This document shows, piece after piece, positions 2,889 to 59,090 of a stretch of 64,000 nt of DNA. Each line of letters opens with the position of its first letter. The stretch's first letter is position 1. Origin of the DNA: Patescibacteria group bacterium (GTDB lineage: Bacteria > Patescibacteriota > JABMPQ01 > JAQVVF01); the NCBI GenBank assembly GCA_028699085.1, contig JAQVVF010000003.1:25721-89720 (forward strand), in the 5' to 3' direction. The position numbers were made by a program, and so were the translations under genes. The notes under the pieces were generated by a model. That model worked only from the letters and a program-made list of their open reading frames with translations. It was not told the origin of the DNA and did not search any database.

Positions 2889-3176
2889 ATGTTAGAACAA
2901 ACTAAAAATATATTGCAAAATTTGGGAATTACTAACAAAATCGCACCAGAAACGCGTGAAAAATTATTACCAAAAATTGGCGAACTTTTAGAAAAAAGAA
3001 TGCTTATTGCTTTAACATTAGCAATCCCAGAAGACAAAAAACAAGAAGCTCAAGACAAGATTTCTAAAAATGAACCAGGCTTAGTAGAATATTTACAGTC
3101 AATCGTTCCAGATTGTGATGAAATATTAAAAAGAACAATTGACAAATTCAAAGCAGAAATCGATCAAATGCTTTAA
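2889..3176 (+). CDS. Hypothetical small protein, 95 aa
   Basis: The ORF starts 30 nt after the previous gene and is followed by a strong intrinsic terminator. Confidence 0.4.
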   Translation: MLEQTKNILQNLGITNKIAPETREKLLPKIGELLEKRMLIALTLAIPEDKKQEAQDKISKNEPGLVEYLQSIVPDCDEILKRTIDKFKAEIDQML

Positions 3177-3285: not shown

Positions 3286-4731
3286 TTACCGGATTGTTAT
3301 TGCAAAATAATTTTTTGTTTTTTTAAAATATGTATATGATGCAATAAATTTTTTATTCTTTTTTTTGTAAACCACATTATTCATGCTTTCCCACTTCTTA
3401 GATTTTCCTTTTCTAAAAACTAATTTTAGTTTTCTTTTTTTGTATTGAAAAGTTTTTGTTCTATCGAGAAGTCTAACTTCGCTATTCTTAAATTTAAATT
3501 TTAATTTTAATTTAAAGCCTGATCTAAGATTTGTAGTCAATTTCCAATAATAAGGAAAAGTATTTTTTGATAAAAGATTTACAGGCTTTTTGCTAACTTT
3601 TTTTACTTTAATATAGTATTTGCTAGCACTATCCGGCAATTGCTGAAAAATTATGACTACATCTTTACCAATAATTGGCTGATTTTTATCGCTATCATCT
3701 AATTTTTTCTTATCGATATCTTGATTTTCTTTTTTATCTAAACCAATTTGCTGATCACCAGTTGTTCTAAAAACTCCATTATTAGTTGCCACTAATAATG
3801 AATTATTAGATGTAAAAAGTAAATTATAGGCCCAAGATACGCCATTCAAAATAGCTGTTTTTGACCATAATTGACCAGAATTAACAGTTTTAAAAATATC
3901 ACCGCTACTTGCAGTTGCACTAAATACTGAACCCAAAGGAAGTTGAAGCAAATGTTCAACTATCCAAGCATCTGACAAGTTTCCAGTTATTCCCCAAATA
4001 TGGCCATCATCAACAGACTTATATACTCTGCCAACCGTATCACCACGCGCTCCAGCATACAAAACTCCTGCCGCAGTTTCTAACAAACTATCAACATAAG
4101 AAGCACCAGTCAATGTTCCAGTTGCCGTCCAATTCTTGCCTAAATCAACAGATTTAAAAACTTTGCCATTTGGGAATGTCCCCGCATATAAGGCACCACT
4201 CGAAGCTTGAATAATTGTGTAAACATTTTCTGCACCTGCTAAATTTCCTGTATCTTGCCAATTTAAACCAGCATCTTCTGATTTATAAATATTTCCATCA
4301 TGATCAGTTGCTGCAAAAATTGAACCATCACTCGTTTGAATAATTCTATATACATTTGACCCACCAACAAATGTCTTTAATTTTGTCCAAGTTACTCCAT
4401 TATCCGCAGATTTAAACAAATCACTATTCGGAGAGGTACCAGCATATATAAAACCTTCTGAATCTACCATTAAAGAATGAACGCCAGTAGCATTTAATAA
4501 ATCACCTGTATTCGTCCATGTTAATCCATCATCAACTGATTTGAACACATCGCCATCTGGATACGTTCCTGCATATATTGCCCCATCTATTCCTTGAGCT
4601 AAACAGTAAACTGTAGTTGCTCCATCTAAATCCCCTGTTTTTGTCCATGTATCTCCCAAATTTGCAGCAAAACAAAAACCTCCCAAAAATAATCCAACAA
4701 TCAAAACAAAACCACCAATTATTTTTTTCAT
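3286..4731 (-). CDS. Secreted BNR/Asp-box repeat protein with a C-terminal lysine-rich module (family member A)
   Basis: The signal peptide is MKKIIGGFVLIVGLFLGGFCFAA. It carries at least six S-x-D-x-G-x-(T/N)-W Asp-box repeats (SVDDGLTWT, SADNGVTWT, SEDAGLNWQ, SVDLGKNWT, SVDDGHIWG, TVNSGQLWS), each followed by an xYAGT motif. The C-terminal tail contains LPDSASKYYIKVKKVSKKPVNLLSKNTFPYYWKLTTNL...KLKFKFK. Confidence 0.7.
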   Translation of the reverse strand: MKKIIGGFVLIVGLFLGGFCFAANLGDTWTKTGDLDGATTVYCLAQGIDGAIYAGTYPDGDVFKSVDDGLTWTNTGDLLNATGVHSLMVDSEGFIYAGTSPNSDLFKSADNGVTWTKLKTFVGGSNVYRIIQTSDGSIFAATDHDGNIYKSEDAGLNWQDTGNLAGAENVYTIIQASSGALYAGTFPNGKVFKSVDLGKNWTATGTLTGASYVDSLLETAAGVLYAGARGDTVGRVYKSVDDGHIWGITGNLSDAWIVEHLLQLPLGSVFSATASSGDIFKTVNSGQLWSKTAILNGVSWAYNLLFTSNNSLLVATNNGVFRTTGDQQIGLDKKENQDIDKKKLDDSDKNQPIIGKDVVIIFQQLPDSASKYYIKVKKVSKKPVNLLSKNTFPYYWKLTTNLRSGFKLKLKFKFKNSEVRLLDRTKTFQYKKRKLKLVFRKGKSKKWESMNNVVYKKKNKKFIASYTYFKKTKNYFAITIR

Positions 4732-6208: not shown

Positions 6209-7987
6209 CTATTTTTTCTTCAAAAAATCAAAAAGTTTATCTACGGAATAAGTATTGATAATATCTTTCTTTTCCGCCCAACCACGCCTTGATGTTAAAA
6301 TTCCAAAATCCAAAACATCAAGCTGATCAACACTATGCGAATCTAAACCTATTGCCAATTTTACACCATGCTCAATGGCACTTTTTATATTTATATCATT
6401 CAAATCCAAACGATCAGGGAAAGCATTAATTTCCAAACAAGTTTTTGTTTCCTTTGCTATTTTTATCACTTGTTCGACATCCAATTCATATTCATCTCTT
6501 CTCCCTAACAATTTGCCAGTTGGATGACTAATTATATCAATATGCTTATTTTTCATTGCTTTGCATAATCTTTCTGTCATTTCTTTCTTTGACATTTTAA
6601 AAACAGAATGAATGCCAGCCACAACAACATCAAGTTTGGCTAGAATATTATCTGGCACATCAATCGTCCCATCTCGCAAAATATTTGCCTCCACACCAGA
6701 CAAAATTCTAAAATCAGATATTTTTTTATTTAAGCTTTCAATATATTTTATATAATCTAAAATATCTTTACCTTCCATTTTTGCAGCAATTTTTAAACTT
6801 CCAACATGATCGCCCATCACTAAATATTTTAAGCCCATTTTCTGACATTTTTTCACCAAGTCAGAAATACTGCCTACAGCATCTAAACTAAAATCGCTAT
6901 GAACATGAAAAACTCCCAAAATATCTTTTCTATCGACGAGCTTAGGCAATTTATGGCTTAATGAAGCCTCAATCTCACCACGGTCTTCACGAAGTTCAGG
7001 CTCAATATAATCCATTCCAAATTTTTGATAAATTTCTTTTTCAGTTTCACCAGCAATTTTAGTTTTTGTTTCGTTACTTTTTACTTTTAACTTGTCACTT
7101 TTAACTTTTAAATTTTGACTTTTTACTTTATACAAACCATACTCATTCAAAGACAAGCCCTTAGCCATGGCCATTTTCCGCAATTTTATATTATGCAATT
7201 TCGATCCAGTAAAATATAAAAGTCCAGCACCATAACTTTCTTTTTTAAAAACTCGCAAGTCACAATCAAATCCTGATTTTAATCTAACCAATGCCTTATC
7301 AGCACCTCTTGCATAAATTTTTTCAACTTGACGTAAACTGCAAAAAGCATCAATTAATTTTTTTGAATTATTCGATACTGCCAGCAAATCAATATCACCT
7401 ATTGTCTCCTTACCTCGTCTAATTGATCCTACTAACTCAATATTTTTATCGTTTGTAAAATTAATCAAATCTTGTTTTATATCTAAAGCTTCCGGCAAGA
7501 TATAACCCAATAATTTTCGACCTTTATTCTTTTCTAAAAATTTAATGCCCGACAAAATATTTTCTTCAGTCTTTTCACCCATGCCTTTAAGTTTACTAAT
7601 TTTTCCTTTTTCTGCTGCCTCTTCTAATTGCTTCACGGTCTTTATGCCTAATTTTTCATAAACTTTTTTAACTAATTTTGGACCTACTCCTTCAATTACA
7701 GTCATTTCTTCTACTTTAGCTGGCATTTTTTTCTTCATTTTTTTGTACTCTTTAATTCTGCCAGTCTTAATTATCTCTTCAATTTTCAAAGCCATAGATT
7801 CTCCAATTCCAGAAATTTCATTCAAAGCTTTTAATCCACCTTCCTTATAAATATCTTTAACATCACGATTCAAAGAACGTAAAGAAATAGCTGCTTTTTG
7901 ATAAGCTCTTGGTTTAAATTGAATATTTTCCATTGCATACATATCAGCTATTTCATCAAAAATATCGGCAATTTTTTCATTTAACAT
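6209..7987 (-). CDS. polX: DNA polymerase X family protein with a C-terminal PHP (histidinol-phosphatase) domain
   Basis: The N-terminus has helix-hairpin-helix motifs and a Pol-beta palm (GSIRRGKETIGDIDLL...GLLYFTGS). The C-terminus has PHP motifs (FHVHSDFSLD...GDHVGS...IISHP). This matches the bacterial PolX architecture. Confidence 0.85.
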   Translation of the reverse strand: MLNEKIADIFDEIADMYAMENIQFKPRAYQKAAISLRSLNRDVKDIYKEGGLKALNEISGIGESMALKIEEIIKTGRIKEYKKMKKKMPAKVEEMTVIEGVGPKLVKKVYEKLGIKTVKQLEEAAEKGKISKLKGMGEKTEENILSGIKFLEKNKGRKLLGYILPEALDIKQDLINFTNDKNIELVGSIRRGKETIGDIDLLAVSNNSKKLIDAFCSLRQVEKIYARGADKALVRLKSGFDCDLRVFKKESYGAGLLYFTGSKLHNIKLRKMAMAKGLSLNEYGLYKVKSQNLKVKSDKLKVKSNETKTKIAGETEKEIYQKFGMDYIEPELREDRGEIEASLSHKLPKLVDRKDILGVFHVHSDFSLDAVGSISDLVKKCQKMGLKYLVMGDHVGSLKIAAKMEGKDILDYIKYIESLNKKISDFRILSGVEANILRDGTIDVPDNILAKLDVVVAGIHSVFKMSKKEMTERLCKAMKNKHIDIISHPTGKLLGRRDEYELDVEQVIKIAKETKTCLEINAFPDRLDLNDINIKSAIEHGVKLAIGLDSHSVDQLDVLDFGILTSRRGWAEKKDIINTYSVDKLFDFLKKK

Positions 7988-19187: not shown

Positions 19188-19271
19188 GCCCTGGTGCTGG
19201 AACTGGCATACAGGCTAGCTTCAGGAGCTAGTGCCCTCACGGGCGTGAGAGTTCAAATCTCTCTCAGGGCA
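19188..19271 (+). tRNA. tRNA-Leu (anticodon CAG), class II with a long variable arm
   Basis: The hand-folded structure is: acceptor GCCCTGG/TCAGGGC (one G-U pair); D-arm CTG-(11 nt)-CAG; anticodon stem CTAGC/GCTAG with loop TTCAGGA (anticodon CAG, G37); variable hairpin GCCC-tcac-GGGC; T-arm GAGAG-TTCAAAT-CTCTC; discriminator A. CCA is not encoded. Confidence 0.85.
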
Positions 19272-30054: not shown

Positions 30055-32712
30055 TTATTCCTGAAGTTTAGATCCTCTAGCTATATAATTAATTGATATT
30101 CCGCCAATTTTTTTAAAGGATCCTCCTGCATATAATTCTCCATTATAGTCCGCTAATGTTAAAACTTTTCTAATTTCAAATATTGGGGCAGCTACTGAGT
30201 TAAGATTAAGCCAAGTCACACCATTCAATACAGCAACATTATAAAACTCATTTGTACCTGATCTAAAAAATTGTCCACCAATATATATCTTATTATTGTA
30301 TTCTGACAAAGCATAAATCGAACCTGGTATCCATGACCCCAACATACTTAAAGAATTACCATTCCATTTATAGACGTACGAATGCAATTCTTCAGAACCA
30401 TTTTCTAATGCTTGTCCTGTAATATATAACTTATTATTATGTGCATATAATCGACCCCAACCAATACGATTGTTGTCAATGTGCCGTCGGTATAGTTCGC
30501 TCCGAAACGACACTTTGCTCCAAACCGAACCATTCCACTTTGCCAAGTTATTAGACTCATAACCATCAATACTATTAAATAATCCTAAAATATACAATTC
30601 ATTATCATATACAGCCATAGAATTAATATAACCATTAAAACCTACACCATCTCCTGCAACCCCTTCCCAAGACACACCATCCCATACCATAATACCACTA
30701 TGATTATCAAGATAACCATCTCTTAAATAGTTCAAAGTAAAGTCTCCTCCAGCATATAATTTATTTCTATAAACTACTAGAGAAGTAATGTTGCTGTCAC
30801 CTATAACATTTGCTACTTGCATACCAGTCCTAGTCCACGACACACCATCCCACTTCATAACTGTATAACCCACAGCTGCATACAATTCAGTTCGAAATGA
30901 AGCCAAAGCAGTAACAGTACCATTAAGCCCAAGCCCAGAACCAAGCGGAATCCAAGAATTCTCGTACCACATAGCTATATTGCTCATTCTGGAACCATTA
31001 ATTACCATTTCAAAATTCCCTCCAATTATTAAACTCTCATTGTGAACAACTGAAGAAGTAACATAAAAAGCACGACCGGGAACTTCCTCAAAAACAACAG
31101 AGTCGTCGAGAGCGCTCCAATTCCAATTAACTGCAACTGCAAACTGCATTTCCATTTTAGGTATCTTATTAAAATAGACTGTAAATTTATTATCAATTAT
31201 ATTTAATCTAACTTTTGCGTTTTTCCAATAATTTGCTAGAGAAATCCACCTGCCCGACTTTTCACGCACAATCAATGCCATATTACTTTCTTTAACTAAT
31301 GAATTTTTCCTCTTCAATGCTTTAAATTCTGCCTGCGTATATTGAAAAGTGACTTTCACCTGATATTTTTGCTTCTTCTTTTTTGCTTTGTATTCTTTTA
31401 GATTACTTTTTAAGGTCCAAACTTTCTTTAAAGTTGTTTTTTTAGTGTTTTTAAATTTAGCTGGATGTTTTTCAGACTTTCTCCACTTCATATAATACTT
31501 GCTGCCTTTTGTTAATTTCGTTGGCAACTTTTTAAAGTATAACTTTAAATCTTGTCCAGAAATTGTTTCTTTCTTTAATGCTTTTTTTAATTTGACTTTC
31601 TTTCCATCAACTAAATTTTGTTGTTGTATTTCAACTGTAGTAGGCTCTGGAGTTGGAGTTGGAGTAGATTCAACCCATTTGGAAATATAATTAGCAGAAC
31701 TGCCACTAGCAACTGTAAAATTACCACCAGCATAAAGCTCGCTGTTGTATACTGCTAAAGCCAAGACTGTACTATTCATTCCAGAACTTAATGCACTCCA
31801 AGATGTACCATTCCATTTTGCAATATAGTTAGCAGAACTGCTATCAGCAGTTGTAAAACTTCCCCCAGCATATAGTTCACTATTAAAAAATACTAATGAA
31901 TAAACTGCTCCATTCATTCCAGATCCAATAGCACTCCAAGAGGAACCATCCCATCTTGCAATATAGTTAGCAAAACTGCCACCAGCAGTTGTATAATTAC
32001 CGCCTACGTATAAATAACTGCTATCTGCTGTCAATGACAAAACCGAACCATTCATGCCAGAACTTAATGTCTGCCAGCCTAAAGAAGTATCTAATTTAGC
32101 AATATGTGCTCCAATATTTGTAAAATCTCCGCCTGCATACAATTTATCATTAAAAACCGTTAATGCGCTTACTTTTTGATCTGGATCTGTAGACCAAGCG
32201 TGATCCCAAATACTGCCATTCCATTTTGCAAGATTACTCATCGCAAAACCACCAGCAGTAGTAAATTCTCCGCCAGCATATAAAACACTGCTATGAACAG
32301 CCAAAGAATAAATTGGACCATTCATTCCAGTACCAACAGCGCTCCAAGATGTACCATTCCATTTGGCAATATAGTTAGCCGAGCTACCATCAGCAGTTGT
32401 AAAAGTTCCTCCAGCATACAAATAAGTGCTATCAACTGCTAAAGCATGGACTGCTCCATTCATTCCTGATCCAACTGCACTCCAAGATGTACCATTCCAT
32501 TTGGCAATATAACTAGTGGAAGTTCCTCCAGCAGTTGTAAAACTGCCTCCGGCATACAATTCATTATTGTATACTGCCAAAGCATTAATTCCGCTATTTG
32601 TTCCAGTACTAACTGCGTTCCAACTTCCAGCCAAACTTTCGTTTGCTAATCCCAAAATACCAAATACCAAAAACGCCACACAAAACAAAAGCTTCGATAA
32701 ATACTTTTTCAT
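30055..32712 (-). CDS. Large secreted repeat protein (Kelch-like repeat beta-propeller), with the lysine-rich module inserted internally (family member B)
   Basis: The signal peptide is MKKYLSKLLFCVAFLVFGILGLA. There are at least 12 repeats of LYAGG(S/N)FTTA.G.S.NYIAKWNGTSWSA(V/L)G.GMNG.V.ALAV. A TPTPTPEPTT linker precedes the lysine-rich module KKLPTKLTKGSKYYMKWRKSEKHPAKF...VWTLKSNL...VKVTFQYTQ, which is followed by a second set of repeats. Confidence 0.7.
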   Translation of the reverse strand: MKKYLSKLLFCVAFLVFGILGLANESLAGSWNAVSTGTNSGINALAVYNNELYAGGSFTTAGGTSTSYIAKWNGTSWSAVGSGMNGAVHALAVDSTYLYAGGTFTTADGSSANYIAKWNGTSWSAVGTGMNGPIYSLAVHSSVLYAGGEFTTAGGFAMSNLAKWNGSIWDHAWSTDPDQKVSALTVFNDKLYAGGDFTNIGAHIAKLDTSLGWQTLSSGMNGSVLSLTADSSYLYVGGNYTTAGGSFANYIARWDGSSWSAIGSGMNGAVYSLVFFNSELYAGGSFTTADSSSANYIAKWNGTSWSALSSGMNSTVLALAVYNSELYAGGNFTVASGSSANYISKWVESTPTPTPEPTTVEIQQQNLVDGKKVKLKKALKKETISGQDLKLYFKKLPTKLTKGSKYYMKWRKSEKHPAKFKNTKKTTLKKVWTLKSNLKEYKAKKKKQKYQVKVTFQYTQAEFKALKRKNSLVKESNMALIVREKSGRWISLANYWKNAKVRLNIIDNKFTVYFNKIPKMEMQFAVAVNWNWSALDDSVVFEEVPGRAFYVTSSVVHNESLIIGGNFEMVINGSRMSNIAMWYENSWIPLGSGLGLNGTVTALASFRTELYAAVGYTVMKWDGVSWTRTGMQVANVIGDSNITSLVVYRNKLYAGGDFTLNYLRDGYLDNHSGIMVWDGVSWEGVAGDGVGFNGYINSMAVYDNELYILGLFNSIDGYESNNLAKWNGSVWSKVSFRSELYRRHIDNNRIGWGRLYAHNNKLYITGQALENGSEELHSYVYKWNGNSLSMLGSWIPGSIYALSEYNNKIYIGGQFFRSGTNEFYNVAVLNGVTWLNLNSVAAPIFEIRKVLTLADYNGELYAGGSFKKIGGISINYIARGSKLQE

Positions 32713-50874: not shown

Positions 50875-52857
50875 TTACTTCACGCCAATCGTAAACAAAG
50901 TATCTTTCTGTTTAAAATATCTAATATCAGTCGCAAAAGTATTCTTCTTGGTATTTTGTTTCGTATTAGTAATCAACTTTAACCTATTAGCATTATACCA
51001 AGTTTTTGTGCCTTTGTCATAAAATTTCAACCACAACTTTTTCTCTGCCTGTTTTTTAGTTAGCTTCTTCAAATCAGAATTTTTTAATCTTAATCTGTTT
51101 GATAATTTTTGAGTGTAATAGAATTTTACTTTGACTCTGAACATCTTTTTTTGATATTTTTCTACTTTGTTTTTGTATGACTTCGATGTTTCATCGCTAC
51201 AAGCTGGATTATAATAGCAAGTTACATAATTGCTTTCTGCCTTTATTAATTTGCTTCTCGATTTTTTATGATAGCTATATAAATTCGTTTTAATTTTCCA
51301 ATATCTTTTTATTGCTTGCTTTTTTACATTTGCATAGTTTTTTGCATATTTTTTGTATCTGTATGTTTGCATCCAATAATTCTCTGAATTATTAGGCAGT
51401 TTTTTCCAGATATATGATAAATCATAGTTAACTACCTCAACATCTTCCTGCGGAATTACTTTGTCTGATGAATTATCATCAGTTGAAGTTAAAGTAGTTG
51501 ACGATACATTTCCAGCCCAATCTGAGACTCTGAAATATACAGTTTTAACTGTTGAGCCTGAAGCATTATGAATACCAGTCAAAGTTGCTGAAGTCAATGC
51601 TGTTCCTGCTGTCAAAGGATCGCAAGTATTGCTTTCATCAATACAATAATATTTAGCTCCACCCATTTTTGCATAATCAGATGCTGACAGGTTGTAGCTG
51701 AATTGATCGCCTGATTTGCCAGTTAATGCGACTGTTGCTGTTGGAACAACGCTATCAAGTAAAACGAAATTAGTATTCTGGCTAGCAGTATTGTAATAAG
51801 CAATAAAATCGTTATTATTGCCATGAGCAATTGAATTCAGAGTTGAATTCTCCATTCCGACTATTGAAGAAATAATTCCTGAAGCGCTATTATATGCATA
51901 ACCTAAATAATTATTGCCAAAATAATAGTGTGAAAGATGTTCATAATTTTGGCTATCCAAGGCAATTGATGGAGAAAAACCAGGATATCCTCCAGTAGAT
52001 GATACATAGGCAGAAGATGTAAACCCTGAAAGATTACCACTTGCTACTTGCAAAGAAGAACTACTAACATCAACATATGTGTATGCAATCTTAACAACAT
52101 CATCACTTCCTACTGAAATTGAATTTCCGTAATAATTTCCCCCTGCAGCTGTAACAATACCAGACAATGTGCCATTTGCATAATTTACAGCATATTTTGT
52201 AGATAAATTAGTTCTGTCAGAATAAGAAACATGAATATTATCCTGCAAATCAACAGCTGATGATATATCATAAATATTACCTGCCAAAAGTGTTCCAACA
52301 ACCCAATTAGAACCAGTCCAATGAGCATATTTCAATCGATTATCAGTATCGCCTGCATGATACTGATAATAAATATGTGGAGTACCATCAGATCTCAATA
52401 CCATTGAAGTCTGCAAACCAGTATCTCCAGTTGTATCAATTGCCTCCTGCCCAGCCCACAAATCATTACTCTTTTTCACATATCTTAAATCACCATTATA
52501 ATAATAACTAATATGAACATCATCGTTGCTCTTATTAATAGCGATTGAACAATATTTACCATATCCAGAACCAATTTCTTTAAATAAAGAATCAGTTGCC
52601 CAAAAACTTCCATTCCAATAGATATGGCGCAAACCAGAAATAGTAGTACCACCAACTTCTTCATAATAAGCACAAATATGCGGATAATCATTACTATCAA
52701 GTGTTATAGAACGATCTCCTTTATAATTTCCCCCATAACTCATAATATTTCTAAAAAATACTTTTCCGCTTTCATTTGTTTGCGTATAAGCTTGCGCAAA
52801 TTGAAAACACAATAAACTAAAAAATACGACTAAAAAACTTGTTAATGCTTTCTTCAT
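50875..52857 (-). CDS. Secreted protein with an N-terminal beta-propeller-like region and the C-terminal lysine-rich module (family member C)
   Basis: The signal peptide is MKKALTSFLVVFFSLLCFQFAQA. The C-terminus reads WKKLPNNSENYWMQTYRYKKYAKNY...KRYWKIKTNL...FRVKVKFYYTQK. Confidence 0.65.
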   Translation of the reverse strand: MKKALTSFLVVFFSLLCFQFAQAYTQTNESGKVFFRNIMSYGGNYKGDRSITLDSNDYPHICAYYEEVGGTTISGLRHIYWNGSFWATDSLFKEIGSGYGKYCSIAINKSNDDVHISYYYNGDLRYVKKSNDLWAGQEAIDTTGDTGLQTSMVLRSDGTPHIYYQYHAGDTDNRLKYAHWTGSNWVVGTLLAGNIYDISSAVDLQDNIHVSYSDRTNLSTKYAVNYANGTLSGIVTAAGGNYYGNSISVGSDDVVKIAYTYVDVSSSSLQVASGNLSGFTSSAYVSSTGGYPGFSPSIALDSQNYEHLSHYYFGNNYLGYAYNSASGIISSIVGMENSTLNSIAHGNNNDFIAYYNTASQNTNFVLLDSVVPTATVALTGKSGDQFSYNLSASDYAKMGGAKYYCIDESNTCDPLTAGTALTSATLTGIHNASGSTVKTVYFRVSDWAGNVSSTTLTSTDDNSSDKVIPQEDVEVVNYDLSYIWKKLPNNSENYWMQTYRYKKYAKNYANVKKQAIKRYWKIKTNLYSYHKKSRSKLIKAESNYVTCYYNPACSDETSKSYKNKVEKYQKKMFRVKVKFYYTQKLSNRLRLKNSDLKKLTKKQAEKKLWLKFYDKGTKTWYNANRLKLITNTKQNTKKNTFATDIRYFKQKDTLFTIGVK

Positions 52858-55309: not shown

Positions 55310-57112
55310 TTAAACTGCACTAATTGCAAACATATTATTTTTCCAATCAAAATTTTCAATCCAAATTCTAAATTTCTTTTCCTTTCTTAAATATACTGCT
55401 GGCATTGTCTGCCAAGACCTACTATTATAATTATAAAATTTTAATTTCAAATCTTTTTTCTTCAATCCATGCAATAATTTATTTCTAAACTTAAAAACCA
55501 TTTTAATTTTAAATTTTCTATCACTTTTTATTTTGTTTAAATTTGATTCTATTCGCCAATAGCCCTTTAATGTTTTAGACTTTTCTAAACCACTCGGTTT
55601 TTTTGCAATTCTCGTTATTTTAAACCAATAATCAGTTGGCTTGCTAGGTAATTTTTTGAATTTAAAATCCAATAATTTTCCTTGTAAATTAAGATTTTTT
55701 AATCCTTTTCTTAAATCAAATTTTTTATCATTATAAATGATATTATAATTTTCCGTTCTGACAATTTCCTGATTTCCCAAATTATCAATTGAAAAGAACT
55801 TCAATACTTTATCATTAAAAATTCGAAACGGACTTGAATATTTTGTTGAACTAATAGTTGGAGTTGAACCATCAAGAGTATAATAAATCCCAGAAATTCC
55901 ATCACTATCAGTTGCAGTTAAAACAATCTTTTTATATTTTTTATAATCTCCTCCAGCAGGTGTTGCTATGGTTCTTGGTTCAAGAAAATTTTCTGAAATT
56001 TTATCCCACAATTCAGTATATGTCCCATCATATCCCAAGGCCCAAATCCCAATGCCTAACAAGTTATTATCATTCACTAAATCATACTTGTATTGCAAAC
56101 TTTCGGCATCTTCATACCAAGTCTGCTGAAAACTGCCATATTTATAATACGGCGTTTTCGAATCATTGTCCCAAATTCTCGAATAGTTTAATAATGCTAA
56201 CCTATTTTCAGCATAAGTTTTTGCCTCACCATCAGCAGTTGTATTTGCTGGAATAATATCCGCTGTAACTGGCCAATCATAGCCATAATATGGCACTCCT
56301 AAAATTAATTTTTGTCGATTAGTATTTGTTAAATTAAAATAAGTATCCAAAGTACTTTTCACATTATAATTGCCCCAAGTGCTACTATCATCATATGGCG
56401 AAATCGGCCCAGCTTCTGGACCTGTTTGCCAATGATAATCATAAGCCATGATCATTAATCCATCTGAATTTTGTGCCAAGGAATTTTCATCAAAAGAATT
56501 TGACCAATCAACTGCTGGCACATCAATTGCAATATGATAAGAAGAATTGGAAGCTTTAAAAGCATTATTTAAATCAGTAATAAAAGTAGTCAAATTTTCT
56601 TTCATCGAAGAATCAACATTTTCAAAATCAATATTTACTCCATCAGCAGATGTGTTTTTAACTTCATTCAATAAATTATTAATTAAATTATTTCTGTTTG
56701 TCGCGCTTGATAATAAAGTTGAAAGATCTGATGCATTAAAATTTTGTGCTGTTAAAACTACCTTAACGCCATTTTGATGAGCCAAATCCAACAACGTATT
56801 ATTCGGCCAACCATGTTTATCACCTAGACTTCCATTGCCATTAACTTCAATCGAAAAATAAGCAACATGAGTCAATAAATCCCATTGAAAATTAGTATAC
56901 GCATCTCCCATCCAATATGGATAAAAACCATAAACAACCTTAGATACGCTTGGCGTTGAACTTATGCTTCCATGGCTAACAATTCCAACATTATCTTGCA
57001 CTTTGTAGTCTCTATTTTTTTCCAATTCGATTTGATGGATACTTTTTCCGAAAACAAAATTTCCAGAAAACAGAAATGAACAAACAATTAATAGATAAAA
57101 TATTTTTTTCAT
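55310..57112 (-). CDS. Secreted glycoside hydrolase family 18-like protein with the C-terminal lysine-rich module (family member D)
   Basis: There is a signal peptide. GH18 motifs are VVYGFYPYW, DGVNIDFE (the DxxDxDxE catalytic motif with the Glu present) and MAYDYHW. The C-terminus reads FKKLPSKPTDYWFKITRIAKKPSGL...LKGYWRIESNL...FKIKMVFKF. Confidence 0.7.
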   Translation of the reverse strand: MKKIFYLLIVCSFLFSGNFVFGKSIHQIELEKNRDYKVQDNVGIVSHGSISSTPSVSKVVYGFYPYWMGDAYTNFQWDLLTHVAYFSIEVNGNGSLGDKHGWPNNTLLDLAHQNGVKVVLTAQNFNASDLSTLLSSATNRNNLINNLLNEVKNTSADGVNIDFENVDSSMKENLTTFITDLNNAFKASNSSYHIAIDVPAVDWSNSFDENSLAQNSDGLMIMAYDYHWQTGPEAGPISPYDDSSTWGNYNVKSTLDTYFNLTNTNRQKLILGVPYYGYDWPVTADIIPANTTADGEAKTYAENRLALLNYSRIWDNDSKTPYYKYGSFQQTWYEDAESLQYKYDLVNDNNLLGIGIWALGYDGTYTELWDKISENFLEPRTIATPAGGDYKKYKKIVLTATDSDGISGIYYTLDGSTPTISSTKYSSPFRIFNDKVLKFFSIDNLGNQEIVRTENYNIIYNDKKFDLRKGLKNLNLQGKLLDFKFKKLPSKPTDYWFKITRIAKKPSGLEKSKTLKGYWRIESNLNKIKSDRKFKIKMVFKFRNKLLHGLKKKDLKLKFYNYNSRSWQTMPAVYLRKEKKFRIWIENFDWKNNMFAISAV

Positions 57113-57122
57113 TATATATATT

Positions 57123-59090
57123 TTATTTTTCCGCTATCACAAACCAATTTTTCATCTTCGAAAACAATCTAATATCTGATACTAATAGATTCTTATTTTT
57201 TTTCAAAATCGTTTTATCTTTCTTTTTCCAATAATTAACATAGCTTTCTTGTTTTGAATATAAGACTAAATTCTTTTCTTTTATTCCAGCTTTTTTAATT
57301 TTCTTGCTTTTGTATGGAAAATAAATTTTTACTCGATATTTTCCTGCTGTTTTTTTGTACAAATTTGTCCTCAATTTCCAAAAATATTTTAATGATTTTT
57401 CATTCTTTAAAAAATTAGGCTTTTTTTTCACTTTATCAATTTGCATCCACATCTTTGTTGGATTGTCTGGCAAATCTAAAAATTTTATTCCAATGCCAGT
57501 TCTGCTCGAAACATATTTTGTTCCCAAAGAATCATCATTGAATCTTATATAATTATCAAAGGTTTTCACTGCAATTTTAGAAAATAATCCTACACTTGCT
57601 TCCGGCTCAATTTCCGTATATTTCCTTTCTCCAAAAGTTTTAACTAACCAATCACTATCAGAAGTTCCAGTTGAAAAACCAACTAATGCGAAATCATCAT
57701 TCTCATTAAAATCTATTCCAAAATACGTTTCATTATTACTTTCATTTTCCAGTAATGAATAAAGCAAATTACCATTGCTATCATATTTTCTAAGTGATAG
57801 ATCATTGCCACTTGCAACTTTAGAATCACCAACTAAAATTACTTGATTCAAGGAATTTATTGCCAAACCATACAAATAATCATTTCCTAATTCACTATCA
57901 AATAATCTATCCCATACTAAATTTCCTTCAGAATCAACTTTCCTTAACAACCAATTATTATCAGTCTCATTATAATATCCGCCTAAATAAATATTATTAT
58001 TTGAATCAACTTCTACTGCTCTAAAATAATTTGCTGTTCCTTTTTCATAACTCGTATTCCAATCTTCCACCAAATTATTAGTATATTTAATGGTATAAAA
58101 TTCTAAGCTCTCATCAGTTGCTCTATTTCCAGTAGCAATAATATTATTTTCTGAATCAACTGCTAAATCATACAAAATATCATCACCTAAAGCTGAATCG
58201 TAATCTTGATCAGTAATAATATTTCCATCTGCATCGTATTTTCTTAGATACCAATTTTTAGTTCCGCTTGTCCTATAGCCTCCAGCAATAACATTATCAT
58301 CGTTATCGACAATTACTGCATTTGCTTCATCATTTCCTCCAGAATCATAAGTCTTGCTCCACAAAATATTGCCATCACTATCGTATTTTCTAATATACCA
58401 GTCTTTATCACCAAGCGCTTCAGAATAACCAATTGCAATAATATTATCAAAACTATCAATTGCTAAATCTTTAACCTCGCCATTATCAAAATCAAAAGTT
58501 TCTGACCAAATTGATTCTCCATCTTCACTATATTTTTCTAATAACCAATCATAACCACCAGTTTCGTTTGCATAATTTCCCGCCACAACCAAATCGTTAG
58601 TTGACAAAAATTTTACGCTTTTTGCTTGATCATGACCGTTTTCACTATCATAATTTTTAACAAAAAAATTAACTGGCTCTAATTCCATAGTTTGATCAAA
58701 AGAACTAGCAGATTGCGCTTCTGAATTTCCAAAATATAGATAAATGTTTTTAATACTTTCAGCCAAAAGTTCCGGAACTTCTACCCAAATCGTTGCCAAA
58801 TTTTCTTCATAATCAAAACTTTTCAACCAAAAATCAAGCGAGGTTGAATCATTTGAATCAACGAATCTAATATCTGATCCATCACTTTTTATTCTTGACC
58901 AAAAATCAGTCTGTTCTTCATCTAAAACTATTTTTATTTGATGATTGCTTAGGTTTTCTGAATTCAAAGTATTATCCAATTCAATTGGCAAGCGATAATC
59001 ATAATCATTACTATACCAAGCCTTGGCATCTGAATTAAAAATAACAAAATAACCAAATAACAAAATTATGCCAATAAAAAATCGTTTCAT
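57123..59090 (-). CDS. Secreted beta-propeller repeat protein (SBBP-like repeats) with the C-terminal lysine-rich module (family member E)
   Basis: There is a signal peptide. It carries at least six repeats of the form DWY(I/L)RKYDSDGNxxW...D.G.D.A..V..D.DNN(I/V)I..GY. The C-terminus reads LDLPDNPTKMWMQIDKVKKKPNFL...LKYFWKLRTNL...YRVKIYFPY. Confidence 0.65.
   Translation of the reverse strand: MKRFFIGIILLFGYFVIFNSDAKAWYSNDYDYRLPIELDNTLNSENLSNHQIKIVLDEEQTDFWSRIKSDGSDIRFVDSNDSTSLDFWLKSFDYEENLATIWVEVPELLAESIKNIYLYFGNSEAQSASSFDQTMELEPVNFFVKNYDSENGHDQAKSVKFLSTNDLVVAGNYANETGGYDWLLEKYSEDGESIWSETFDFDNGEVKDLAIDSFDNIIAIGYSEALGDKDWYIRKYDSDGNILWSKTYDSGGNDEANAVIVDNDDNVIAGGYRTSGTKNWYLRKYDADGNIITDQDYDSALGDDILYDLAVDSENNIIATGNRATDESLEFYTIKYTNNLVEDWNTSYEKGTANYFRAVEVDSNNNIYLGGYYNETDNNWLLRKVDSEGNLVWDRLFDSELGNDYLYGLAINSLNQVILVGDSKVASGNDLSLRKYDSNGNLLYSLLENESNNETYFGIDFNENDDFALVGFSTGTSDSDWLVKTFGERKYTEIEPEASVGLFSKIAVKTFDNYIRFNDDSLGTKYVSSRTGIGIKFLDLPDNPTKMWMQIDKVKKKPNFLKNEKSLKYFWKLRTNLYKKTAGKYRVKIYFPYKSKKIKKAGIKEKNLVLYSKQESYVNYWKKKDKTILKKNKNLLVSDIRLFSKMKNWFVIAEK

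Follow-up and report, generated by a model that had tools for sequence, protein, structure and literature searches.

Protein A, the 481-residue product of a gene near the start of a 64-kb stretch of DNA (hereafter the window; 31.8% GC), ends in a lysine-rich tail, and this tail is a copy of an undescribed domain of ~125 residues that is restricted to a small clade of Patescibacteria. The window stems from a metagenome-assembled genome (MAG) labelled 'Patescibacteria group bacterium' at NCBI (locus tags PHN19_02450, PHN19_02510). The domain occurs five times in it, on proteins (A to E) with otherwise unrelated N-terminal parts, and represents a new sequence family with a putative role of a known kind, namely C-terminal surface retention or sorting. 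Its predicted structure is a β-sandwich covered with lysines, which may hold secreted, acidic proteins on the cell envelope.

Five homologous copies in the window

The tail of protein A, which reads LPDSASKYYIKVKKVSKKPVNLLSKNTFPYYWKLTTNL...KLKFKFK, belongs to a C-terminal domain with 25% Lys and a net charge of +32. A reading made from the sequence only had aligned this tail with a module at 50.9–59.1 kb and had suggested a hidden Markov model (HMM) of the other tails as a check. Such an HMM, built solely from the tails of proteins B, C, and D and run over the 303 six-frame open reading frames (ORFs) of the window, gives the A tail a score of 58.4 bits (E 1.5e-17) and thereby bears out the homology. 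An HMM from 64 family members outside the window finds it at 71.9 bits (E 9e-22). Because HMMER flagged a large composition bias for the tail match (23 bits), 1000 composition-preserving shuffles of the A tail were scored as a control; the best of them reached 4.8 bits, and lysine richness alone is therefore no explanation for the score of the real tail.

The same control decides on the possibility that the tails are low-complexity lysine stretches, derived from A-rich sequence in a 32% GC genome and aligned by composition. The base composition and the bias term would be in keeping with such an artefact, as would the fact that index-based protein searches with the domain mostly failed, returning one relative with alignment A1 and none with A3. 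However, besides the shuffles, which reject it, the best-conserved positions of the family are non-lysine residues (W41, L80, L82, W92, I123, F57, P11, and N46), AlphaFold predicts a confident fold, and the passengers of the same proteins, i.e., the parts other than the domain, contain 5% Lys; the probability left to an artefact is negligible.

The number of copies differs from the earlier count. Three copies rather than four lie at 50.9–59.1 kb, at the C termini of B, C, and D; the further copy in A is real, and together with an internal copy in E the total of the window is five. HMM searches of the six-frame ORFs yield no sixth copy. The domain of A as delimited here (Table 1) lies close to the boundary of 3286..3660 that had been read from the sequence alone.

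The N-terminal parts of the five proteins are unrelated: an Asp-box BNR/Reg_prop propeller in A, an unannotated repeat protein in B, GH18 with CHB_HEX_C_1 in C, DUF2341 with delta-60 repeats in D, and a DUF5122 propeller in E. The copies are spread over 56 kb between housekeeping genes (GNAT, PolX, RecA, EF-P, Mur ligase, amino-acid permease, Na/Ca exchanger, NUDIX, Lon, and UvrA). Homologous tails, unrelated N-terminal parts, and dispersal therefore indicate a reused protein domain and no local tandem duplication. To this extent the initial description as a mobile, reusable unit stands; its mobility does not. Blastn among the five domain coding segments finds no nucleotide similarity beyond A-rich words of at most 28 nucleotides, which rules out mobile DNA or recent duplication, and the amino-acid identity among the five copies is 30–39%. 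Orthologues keep the domain, at a level of conservation similar to that of the passenger: between A and its orthologue P0019, identity is 72.6% for the passenger and 50% for the domain; B and its syntenic orthologue in L041, a locus matching the window at 44.9–51.8 kb with 73% nucleotide identity, share 43% and 62%; and C and P0003 share 89.5% and 85.4%. The shuffling is therefore ancient and, as judged from these sequence comparisons, the domain is an old, selectively maintained unit spread by ancient shuffling with no sign of present-day mobility.

A 4.3-kb contig of 'bacterium isolate CSMAG_2461' (L002; JAUWOX010000105.1, 794..4294, minus strand) carries three consecutive genes that end in the domain, so genes with the domain can also be arranged locally in tandem. 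In the window, C and D (55310..59090) are neighbours and resemble this run.

Family, position, and predicted fold

When 1.84 billion representatives of clusters at 50% identity were scanned exhaustively with HMMER, only 75 clusters emerged, and for 64 of these E was below 1e-10. The index-based search seems to be blind to this lysine-rich family. All members with a named source or a titled genome come from Patescibacteria-group MAGs, except for one MAG titled only 'bacterium'. In addition, one genome per species, covering 185,579 species, was scanned with a degenerate DNA pattern for x-K-[KR]-Y-W-[KR]-x-x-T-N-L, the first position of which fixes only the middle T, i.e., approximately any hydrophobic residue. 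This gave 44 matches, and 7 loci from three MAGs—titled Patescibacteria, 'Ca. Saccharibacteria', and 'bacterium'—are real as judged by HMM. None of the copies in the window fits the pattern, and the genome scan therefore under-counts. On viral contigs, the same pattern gave four chance matches and no domain copy. Pfam (2025) contains no match to the domain, whether searched with the five window proteins or with 34 isolated domains (E up to 10 for the latter); in NCBIfam (June 2026), searched up to E 1, all five window tails stay unmatched, and PDB sequences up to E 10 give nothing either. A search of the literature found no description of a cationic C-terminal domain in the candidate phyla radiation (CPR).

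A truncated ORF on a contig of JGI 3300026161 (L001; 250..732, plus strand) has a less basic end with the same pattern (..KFKVAIRYSQ..LKEGKLRLYYKTETGIWKGP..NVIKFKI..) and does not score significantly with the family HMM. This ORF may represent a distant, non-cationic relation through which the family connects to a broader set of C-terminal sandwiches.

The domain forms the end of the protein in 72 of the 75 clusters. In the remaining three (E/P0002, P0021, and P0025), which are mutually divergent with less than 50% identity throughout, it is internal and followed by a second propeller. A signal-peptide-like hydrophobic start is present in 57 of 64 full-length members, and five of the six window ORFs with such a start, as judged by a crude hydropathy criterion, carry the domain. 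Domain and passenger differ in charge: the domain has a median pI of 10.3, 25% Lys, and a net charge of +31, whereas the passengers have a median pI of 4.8 and 5% Lys. At least 18 alignment columns contain Lys or Arg at 69% or more, alternating with hydrophobic core positions in the strands. The conserved core consists of F7, P11, Y17, W41, T45-N46-L47, F57, Y/F59, L80, L82, W92, F107, F121, and I123, every one of which is found in copy A. The last residue is Lys or Arg in 55 of 62 C-terminal copies and follows a conserved F-A-I-G-x motif. The passengers are mostly β-propellers (FG-GAP, Reg_prop, lactonase/YNCE, DUF5122, BNR, and NHL); CHB_HEX_C_1/Fn3_assoc occurs in 20 of 70, and immunoglobulin (Ig)-like domains, GH18, and a metallophosphoesterase are also present.

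AlphaFold2 models reach a predicted local distance difference test score of 85.6 from six sequences and 91.6 from 34 sequences, with the same eight strands in both. The predicted fold is an eight-strand β-sandwich in which strand 4 is followed by one short helix, and conserved lysines occupy the exposed positions. Foldseek against the PDB gives nothing significant, the best match being GH66 CITase at E 0.02. The nearest solved fold appears to be that of ankyrin ZU5, which binds without being catalytic and was deposited as ankyrin's spectrin-binding region. On the basis of the models, the fold may be ZU5-like, a likeness of topology and not necessarily of descent.

Given this likeness, a self-cleaving domain of the ZU5/GAIN/FIIND type, cut before its last strand and leaving the passenger non-covalently attached, has to be considered. 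Some large surface proteins of bacteria are known to contain ZU5 domains (PMC3482391), and UNC5B ZU5 (6.5–6.8), GAIN domains (5.3–6.4), and the FIIND of CARD8/NLRP1 (4.8–6.0) also appear in the structural comparison. However, no self-cleavage motif (HFS, SF↓S, HL↓T, or CxH; His-Phe-Ser/Thr/Cys) is conserved before the last strand in columns 112–117, where the consensus reads F-K-F-P/K-K-K, and the sole frequent His, in column 100 (35 of 69), is absent from the window copies A to D. Besides the lack of a significant Foldseek match, the ZU5 profile of Pfam (PF00791) matches none of the 34 members at E up to 10, and the best-matching ankyrin ZU5 domains are themselves non-catalytic. With its motif absent, self-cleavage is rejected here as highly improbable.

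Proteins carrying the domain in the window

The coordinates of gene A, of its parts, and of the other copies are collected in Table 1.

Table 1. Gene A and the five copies of the cationic domain in the window
Feature	Position	Strand	Description	Basis
Gene A	3286..4731	(-)	481-aa secreted protein: signal peptide, six-Asp-box propeller, charged linker, and cationic C-terminal domain	ORF list, Pfam, Asp boxes, orthologue P0019
Signal peptide of A, MKKIIGGFVLIVGLFLGGFCFA↓ANLG	4663..4731	(-)	N-terminal hydrophobic segment; putative cleavage site (↓)	Hydropathy scan; cleavage site read from sequence
Asp-box β-propeller passenger of A, ~aa 24–320	3772..4662	(-)	Six S/TxD/NxGxxW motifs at aa 65–289	Motifs; weak matches to solved propellers
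Cationic C-terminal domain of A, aa 356–481	3289..3666	(-)	126 aa	HMM scores, composition, AlphaFold models
C-terminal copy in B	50878..51426	(-)	Protein B: 50875..52857, 660 aa	Alignments; L041 syntenic orthologue
C-terminal copy in C	55313..55681	(-)	Protein C: 55310..57112, 600 aa; GH18 and CHB_HEX_C_1/Fn3_assoc	Pfam, HMM
C-terminal copy in D	57126..57503	(-)	Protein D: 57123..59090, 655 aa; DUF2341 and delta-60 repeats	Pfam, NCBIfam, HMM; NCBI MDD3887628.1
Internal copy in E, aa 386–529	31126..31557	(-)	Protein E: 30055..32712, 885 aa	HMM E 5e-12, wider profile E 2e-40; identical to NCBI MDD3887611.1

The six Asp-box repeats initially seen in protein A are confirmed at residues 65 (SVDDGLTW), 108 (SADNGVTW), 151 (SEDAGLNW), 194 (SVDLGKNW), 239 (SVDDGHIW), and 282 (TVNSGQLW), with a spacing of ~43–45 residues. 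The propeller had been described as sialidase or Ycf48-like, a label that is right only in a loose sense: the Asp boxes are present, but PSII_BNR (PF14870; 20 versus 27 bits) and BNR (PF02012; 15.1 versus 27 bits) stay below their Pfam thresholds, and Reg_prop is the only Pfam propeller family above threshold (38.8 bits, cut-off 20.4). The F510_1955 glycosylhydrolase model of NCBIfam (NF045728) is likewise sub-threshold (56.5 bits, cut-off 175), and the solved sequences closest to the propeller of A are generic propellers at E 2e-5 or weaker.

At NCBI, proteins E and B are named 'hypothetical protein' and D 'DUF2341 domain-containing protein'. The copy in B features an insertion of ~40 residues between strands 3 and 4, at about residues 535–575, with two cysteines (..TCYYNPACSDE..). 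The relatives P0012, P0023, and P0053 have the same insertion and Cys pair; the sequences suggest a disulfide-closed loop specific to that subfamily. The passenger of B (residues 25–470) has no match in Pfam or NCBIfam and contains a repeated '..HISYY..' motif, which recurs in those of P0017, P0041, and P0043; this passenger probably represents a repeat or propeller family not described so far. In protein E, the domain is flanked by two propeller-like halves, both with an 'ELYAGG.F....G....IAKWNG.SW' repeat. This architecture recurs in P0021 (833 residues) and P0025 (859 residues), from clusters less than 50% identical; hence it is conserved and no read-through artefact.

Just downstream of gene A lies a gene for a DUF5663 protein (2889..3176, plus strand), and upstream a 592-residue protein (6209..7987, minus strand) with the look, as judged by eye, of a PolX-type polymerase with a PHP domain. 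The 64 kb contain a single tRNA, tRNA-Leu CAG at 19188..19271; Rfam at gathering thresholds gives no match in the window, this tRNA included.

Candidate functions and known systems

The favoured interpretation, with roughly even chances of being right, is that the cationic domain keeps secreted proteins attached to the anionic envelope of the cell by non-covalent binding. The precursor would be exported by Sec via its N-terminal signal peptide, and the acidic passenger (propeller, glycosidase, or Ig-like; pI ~4–5) would then stay on the surface through binding of the domain to a polyanionic envelope component. Teichoic-acid-like polymers come into question as ligands, as do the head groups of anionic phospholipids or a surface layer of acidic nature, and charge repulsion might help to push the acidic passenger outward. 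This interpretation is drawn from the presence of a folded, conserved, cationic C-terminal domain on Sec-exported acidic proteins in which no other retention device—transmembrane helix or LPXTG—is visible after signal-peptide cleavage. In its favor, the passengers (propellers, CHB_HEX_C_1, Ig-like, and GH18) are typical surface modules, and the internal copies in E/P0002, P0021, and P0025 are easier to reconcile with a binding module than with a signal that has to be terminal. A precedent is given by the GW modules of Listeria InlB and Ami, which mediate non-covalent retention via binding of lipoteichoic acid (PMC4010754). The present domain would then be a functional analogue of these modules. 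Ankyrin ZU5, apparently the nearest solved fold, is likewise a binding domain.

Several observations weigh against an envelope anchor. The domain is a single copy, in 72/75 clusters at the extreme C terminus and in 55/62 copies with a Lys or Arg end, and a sorting signal would look alike. Classical wall-binding domains usually are tandem repeats and occur at either protein end. Furthermore, profiles of known wall-binding families (SLH, LysM, CW_binding_1/2, SH3_8/GW, WxL, and PG_binding) match neither the five window proteins (Pfam and NCBIfam) nor the 34 isolated domains (Pfam).

The domain could instead be a C-terminal sorting or attachment tag for a dedicated machinery of Patescibacteria, possibly removed in the manner of the C-terminal domain (CTD) of the type IX secretion system (T9SS) in Bacteroidota. 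The T9SS CTD is a β-sandwich of ~100 residues at the C terminus of many unrelated Sec-exported proteins per genome, usually with a basic last residue. The extreme C-terminal position with its basic end after F-A-I-G-x, the presence of one domain on many unrelated passengers and on five of the six signal-peptide-like window ORFs, and the similar size and β-sandwich nature all point in this direction. However, NCBIfam, which includes Por_Secre_tail (TIGR04183) and other C-terminal sorting-domain models, gives no match on the five window tails at E up to 1, nor does Pfam. As terminal signals, the conserved copies inside E, P0021, and P0025 would serve no purpose, and recognition does not need a position-conserved net charge of +30. 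There is no conserved neighbour gene, the flanks being Mur ligase, permease, Na/Ca exchanger, NUDIX, GNAT, RecA, and EF-P. The T9SS is a system of diderm Bacteroidota, whereas the hosts here are Patescibacteria, in which, to our knowledge, no T9SS is expected. On balance, a sorting tag is improbable. The same low standing applies to a wider version, in which a surface-display or host-attachment pathway peculiar to Patescibacteria would recognise its proteins by the domain, a C-terminal 'address label' for the whole surface proteome of the clade. That such a label would be handled by a new machinery, or would dock directly on the host cell envelope during episymbiosis, is equally doubtful.

Alternatively, the cationic sandwich may bind an external polyanion rather than the envelope of its producer: the host envelope of an episymbiont, an anionic polysaccharide in the manner of a carbohydrate-binding module (CBM), or extracellular DNA. 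Cultivated Patescibacteria are described as obligate episymbionts (PMC11623550), and the GW modules of InlB bind host glycosaminoglycans besides lipoteichoic acid (PMC4010754). The top Foldseek match, with its non-significant E of 0.02, is to GH66 CITase, and one passenger is a GH18 enzyme. However, if external targets were all that the domain bound, nothing visible in the proteins would keep them on the producer once the signal peptide is cleaved. The passengers are for the most part non-enzymatic propellers, and substrate targeting in the manner of a CBM therefore cannot be the general role; the sole match to a CBM family profile is to CBM65_1 at E 0.056 in one of 34 members. On balance, binding outward is considered unlikely.

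Patescibacteria (CPR) are ultrasmall, mostly uncultivated episymbionts, and their host attachment and surface organisation are largely obscure. One recognisable C-terminal domain on five of six signal-peptide-like proteins of the window, and in related genomes on propellers, Ig-like adhesin-type modules, and a GH18 enzyme, makes it easy to list the surface proteome of the clade from sequence and to choose candidate adhesins. The unannotated family would join the short list of bacterial surface-retention domains and might serve as a display tag. Its impact is modest for now because the family is small (75 clusters in 1.84 billion) and its function a matter of interpretation; it is useful for the surface biology of CPR and would be paradigm-changing only if a dedicated pathway or a host-docking function held true.

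Among known systems, the wall anchors of monoderms (GW/SH3_8, SLH, CWB2, LysM, and choline-binding repeats) are alike in the proposed role, the modular retention of diverse secreted passengers. In contrast to them, the present domain is non-homologous, occurs as a single copy instead of tandem arrays, is almost exclusively C-terminal, and has a different fold. The T9SS CTD (Por_Secre_tail, TIGR04183) shares the C-terminal sandwich on unrelated Sec-exported proteins and the basic end; the present domain differs by its absence from NCBIfam and Pfam, its Patescibacteria hosts, a net charge of ~+30, conserved internal copies, and no known cognate machinery. The C-terminal β-sandwich accessory domains of GH66 CITase/dextranase, GH2, and GH98 are non-cationic and fixed parts of their enzymes, whereas the present domain is common to unrelated, mostly non-enzymatic passengers. 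ZU5 (ankyrin, UNC5, and PIDD; PF00791) and the ZU5/GAIN/FIIND superfamily may come closest in topology, at 13–14% identity, with no profile match and with a similarity that Foldseek does not return; compared with them, the present domain is extracellular, strongly cationic, devoid of the self-cleavage motif, and placed at the extreme C terminus.
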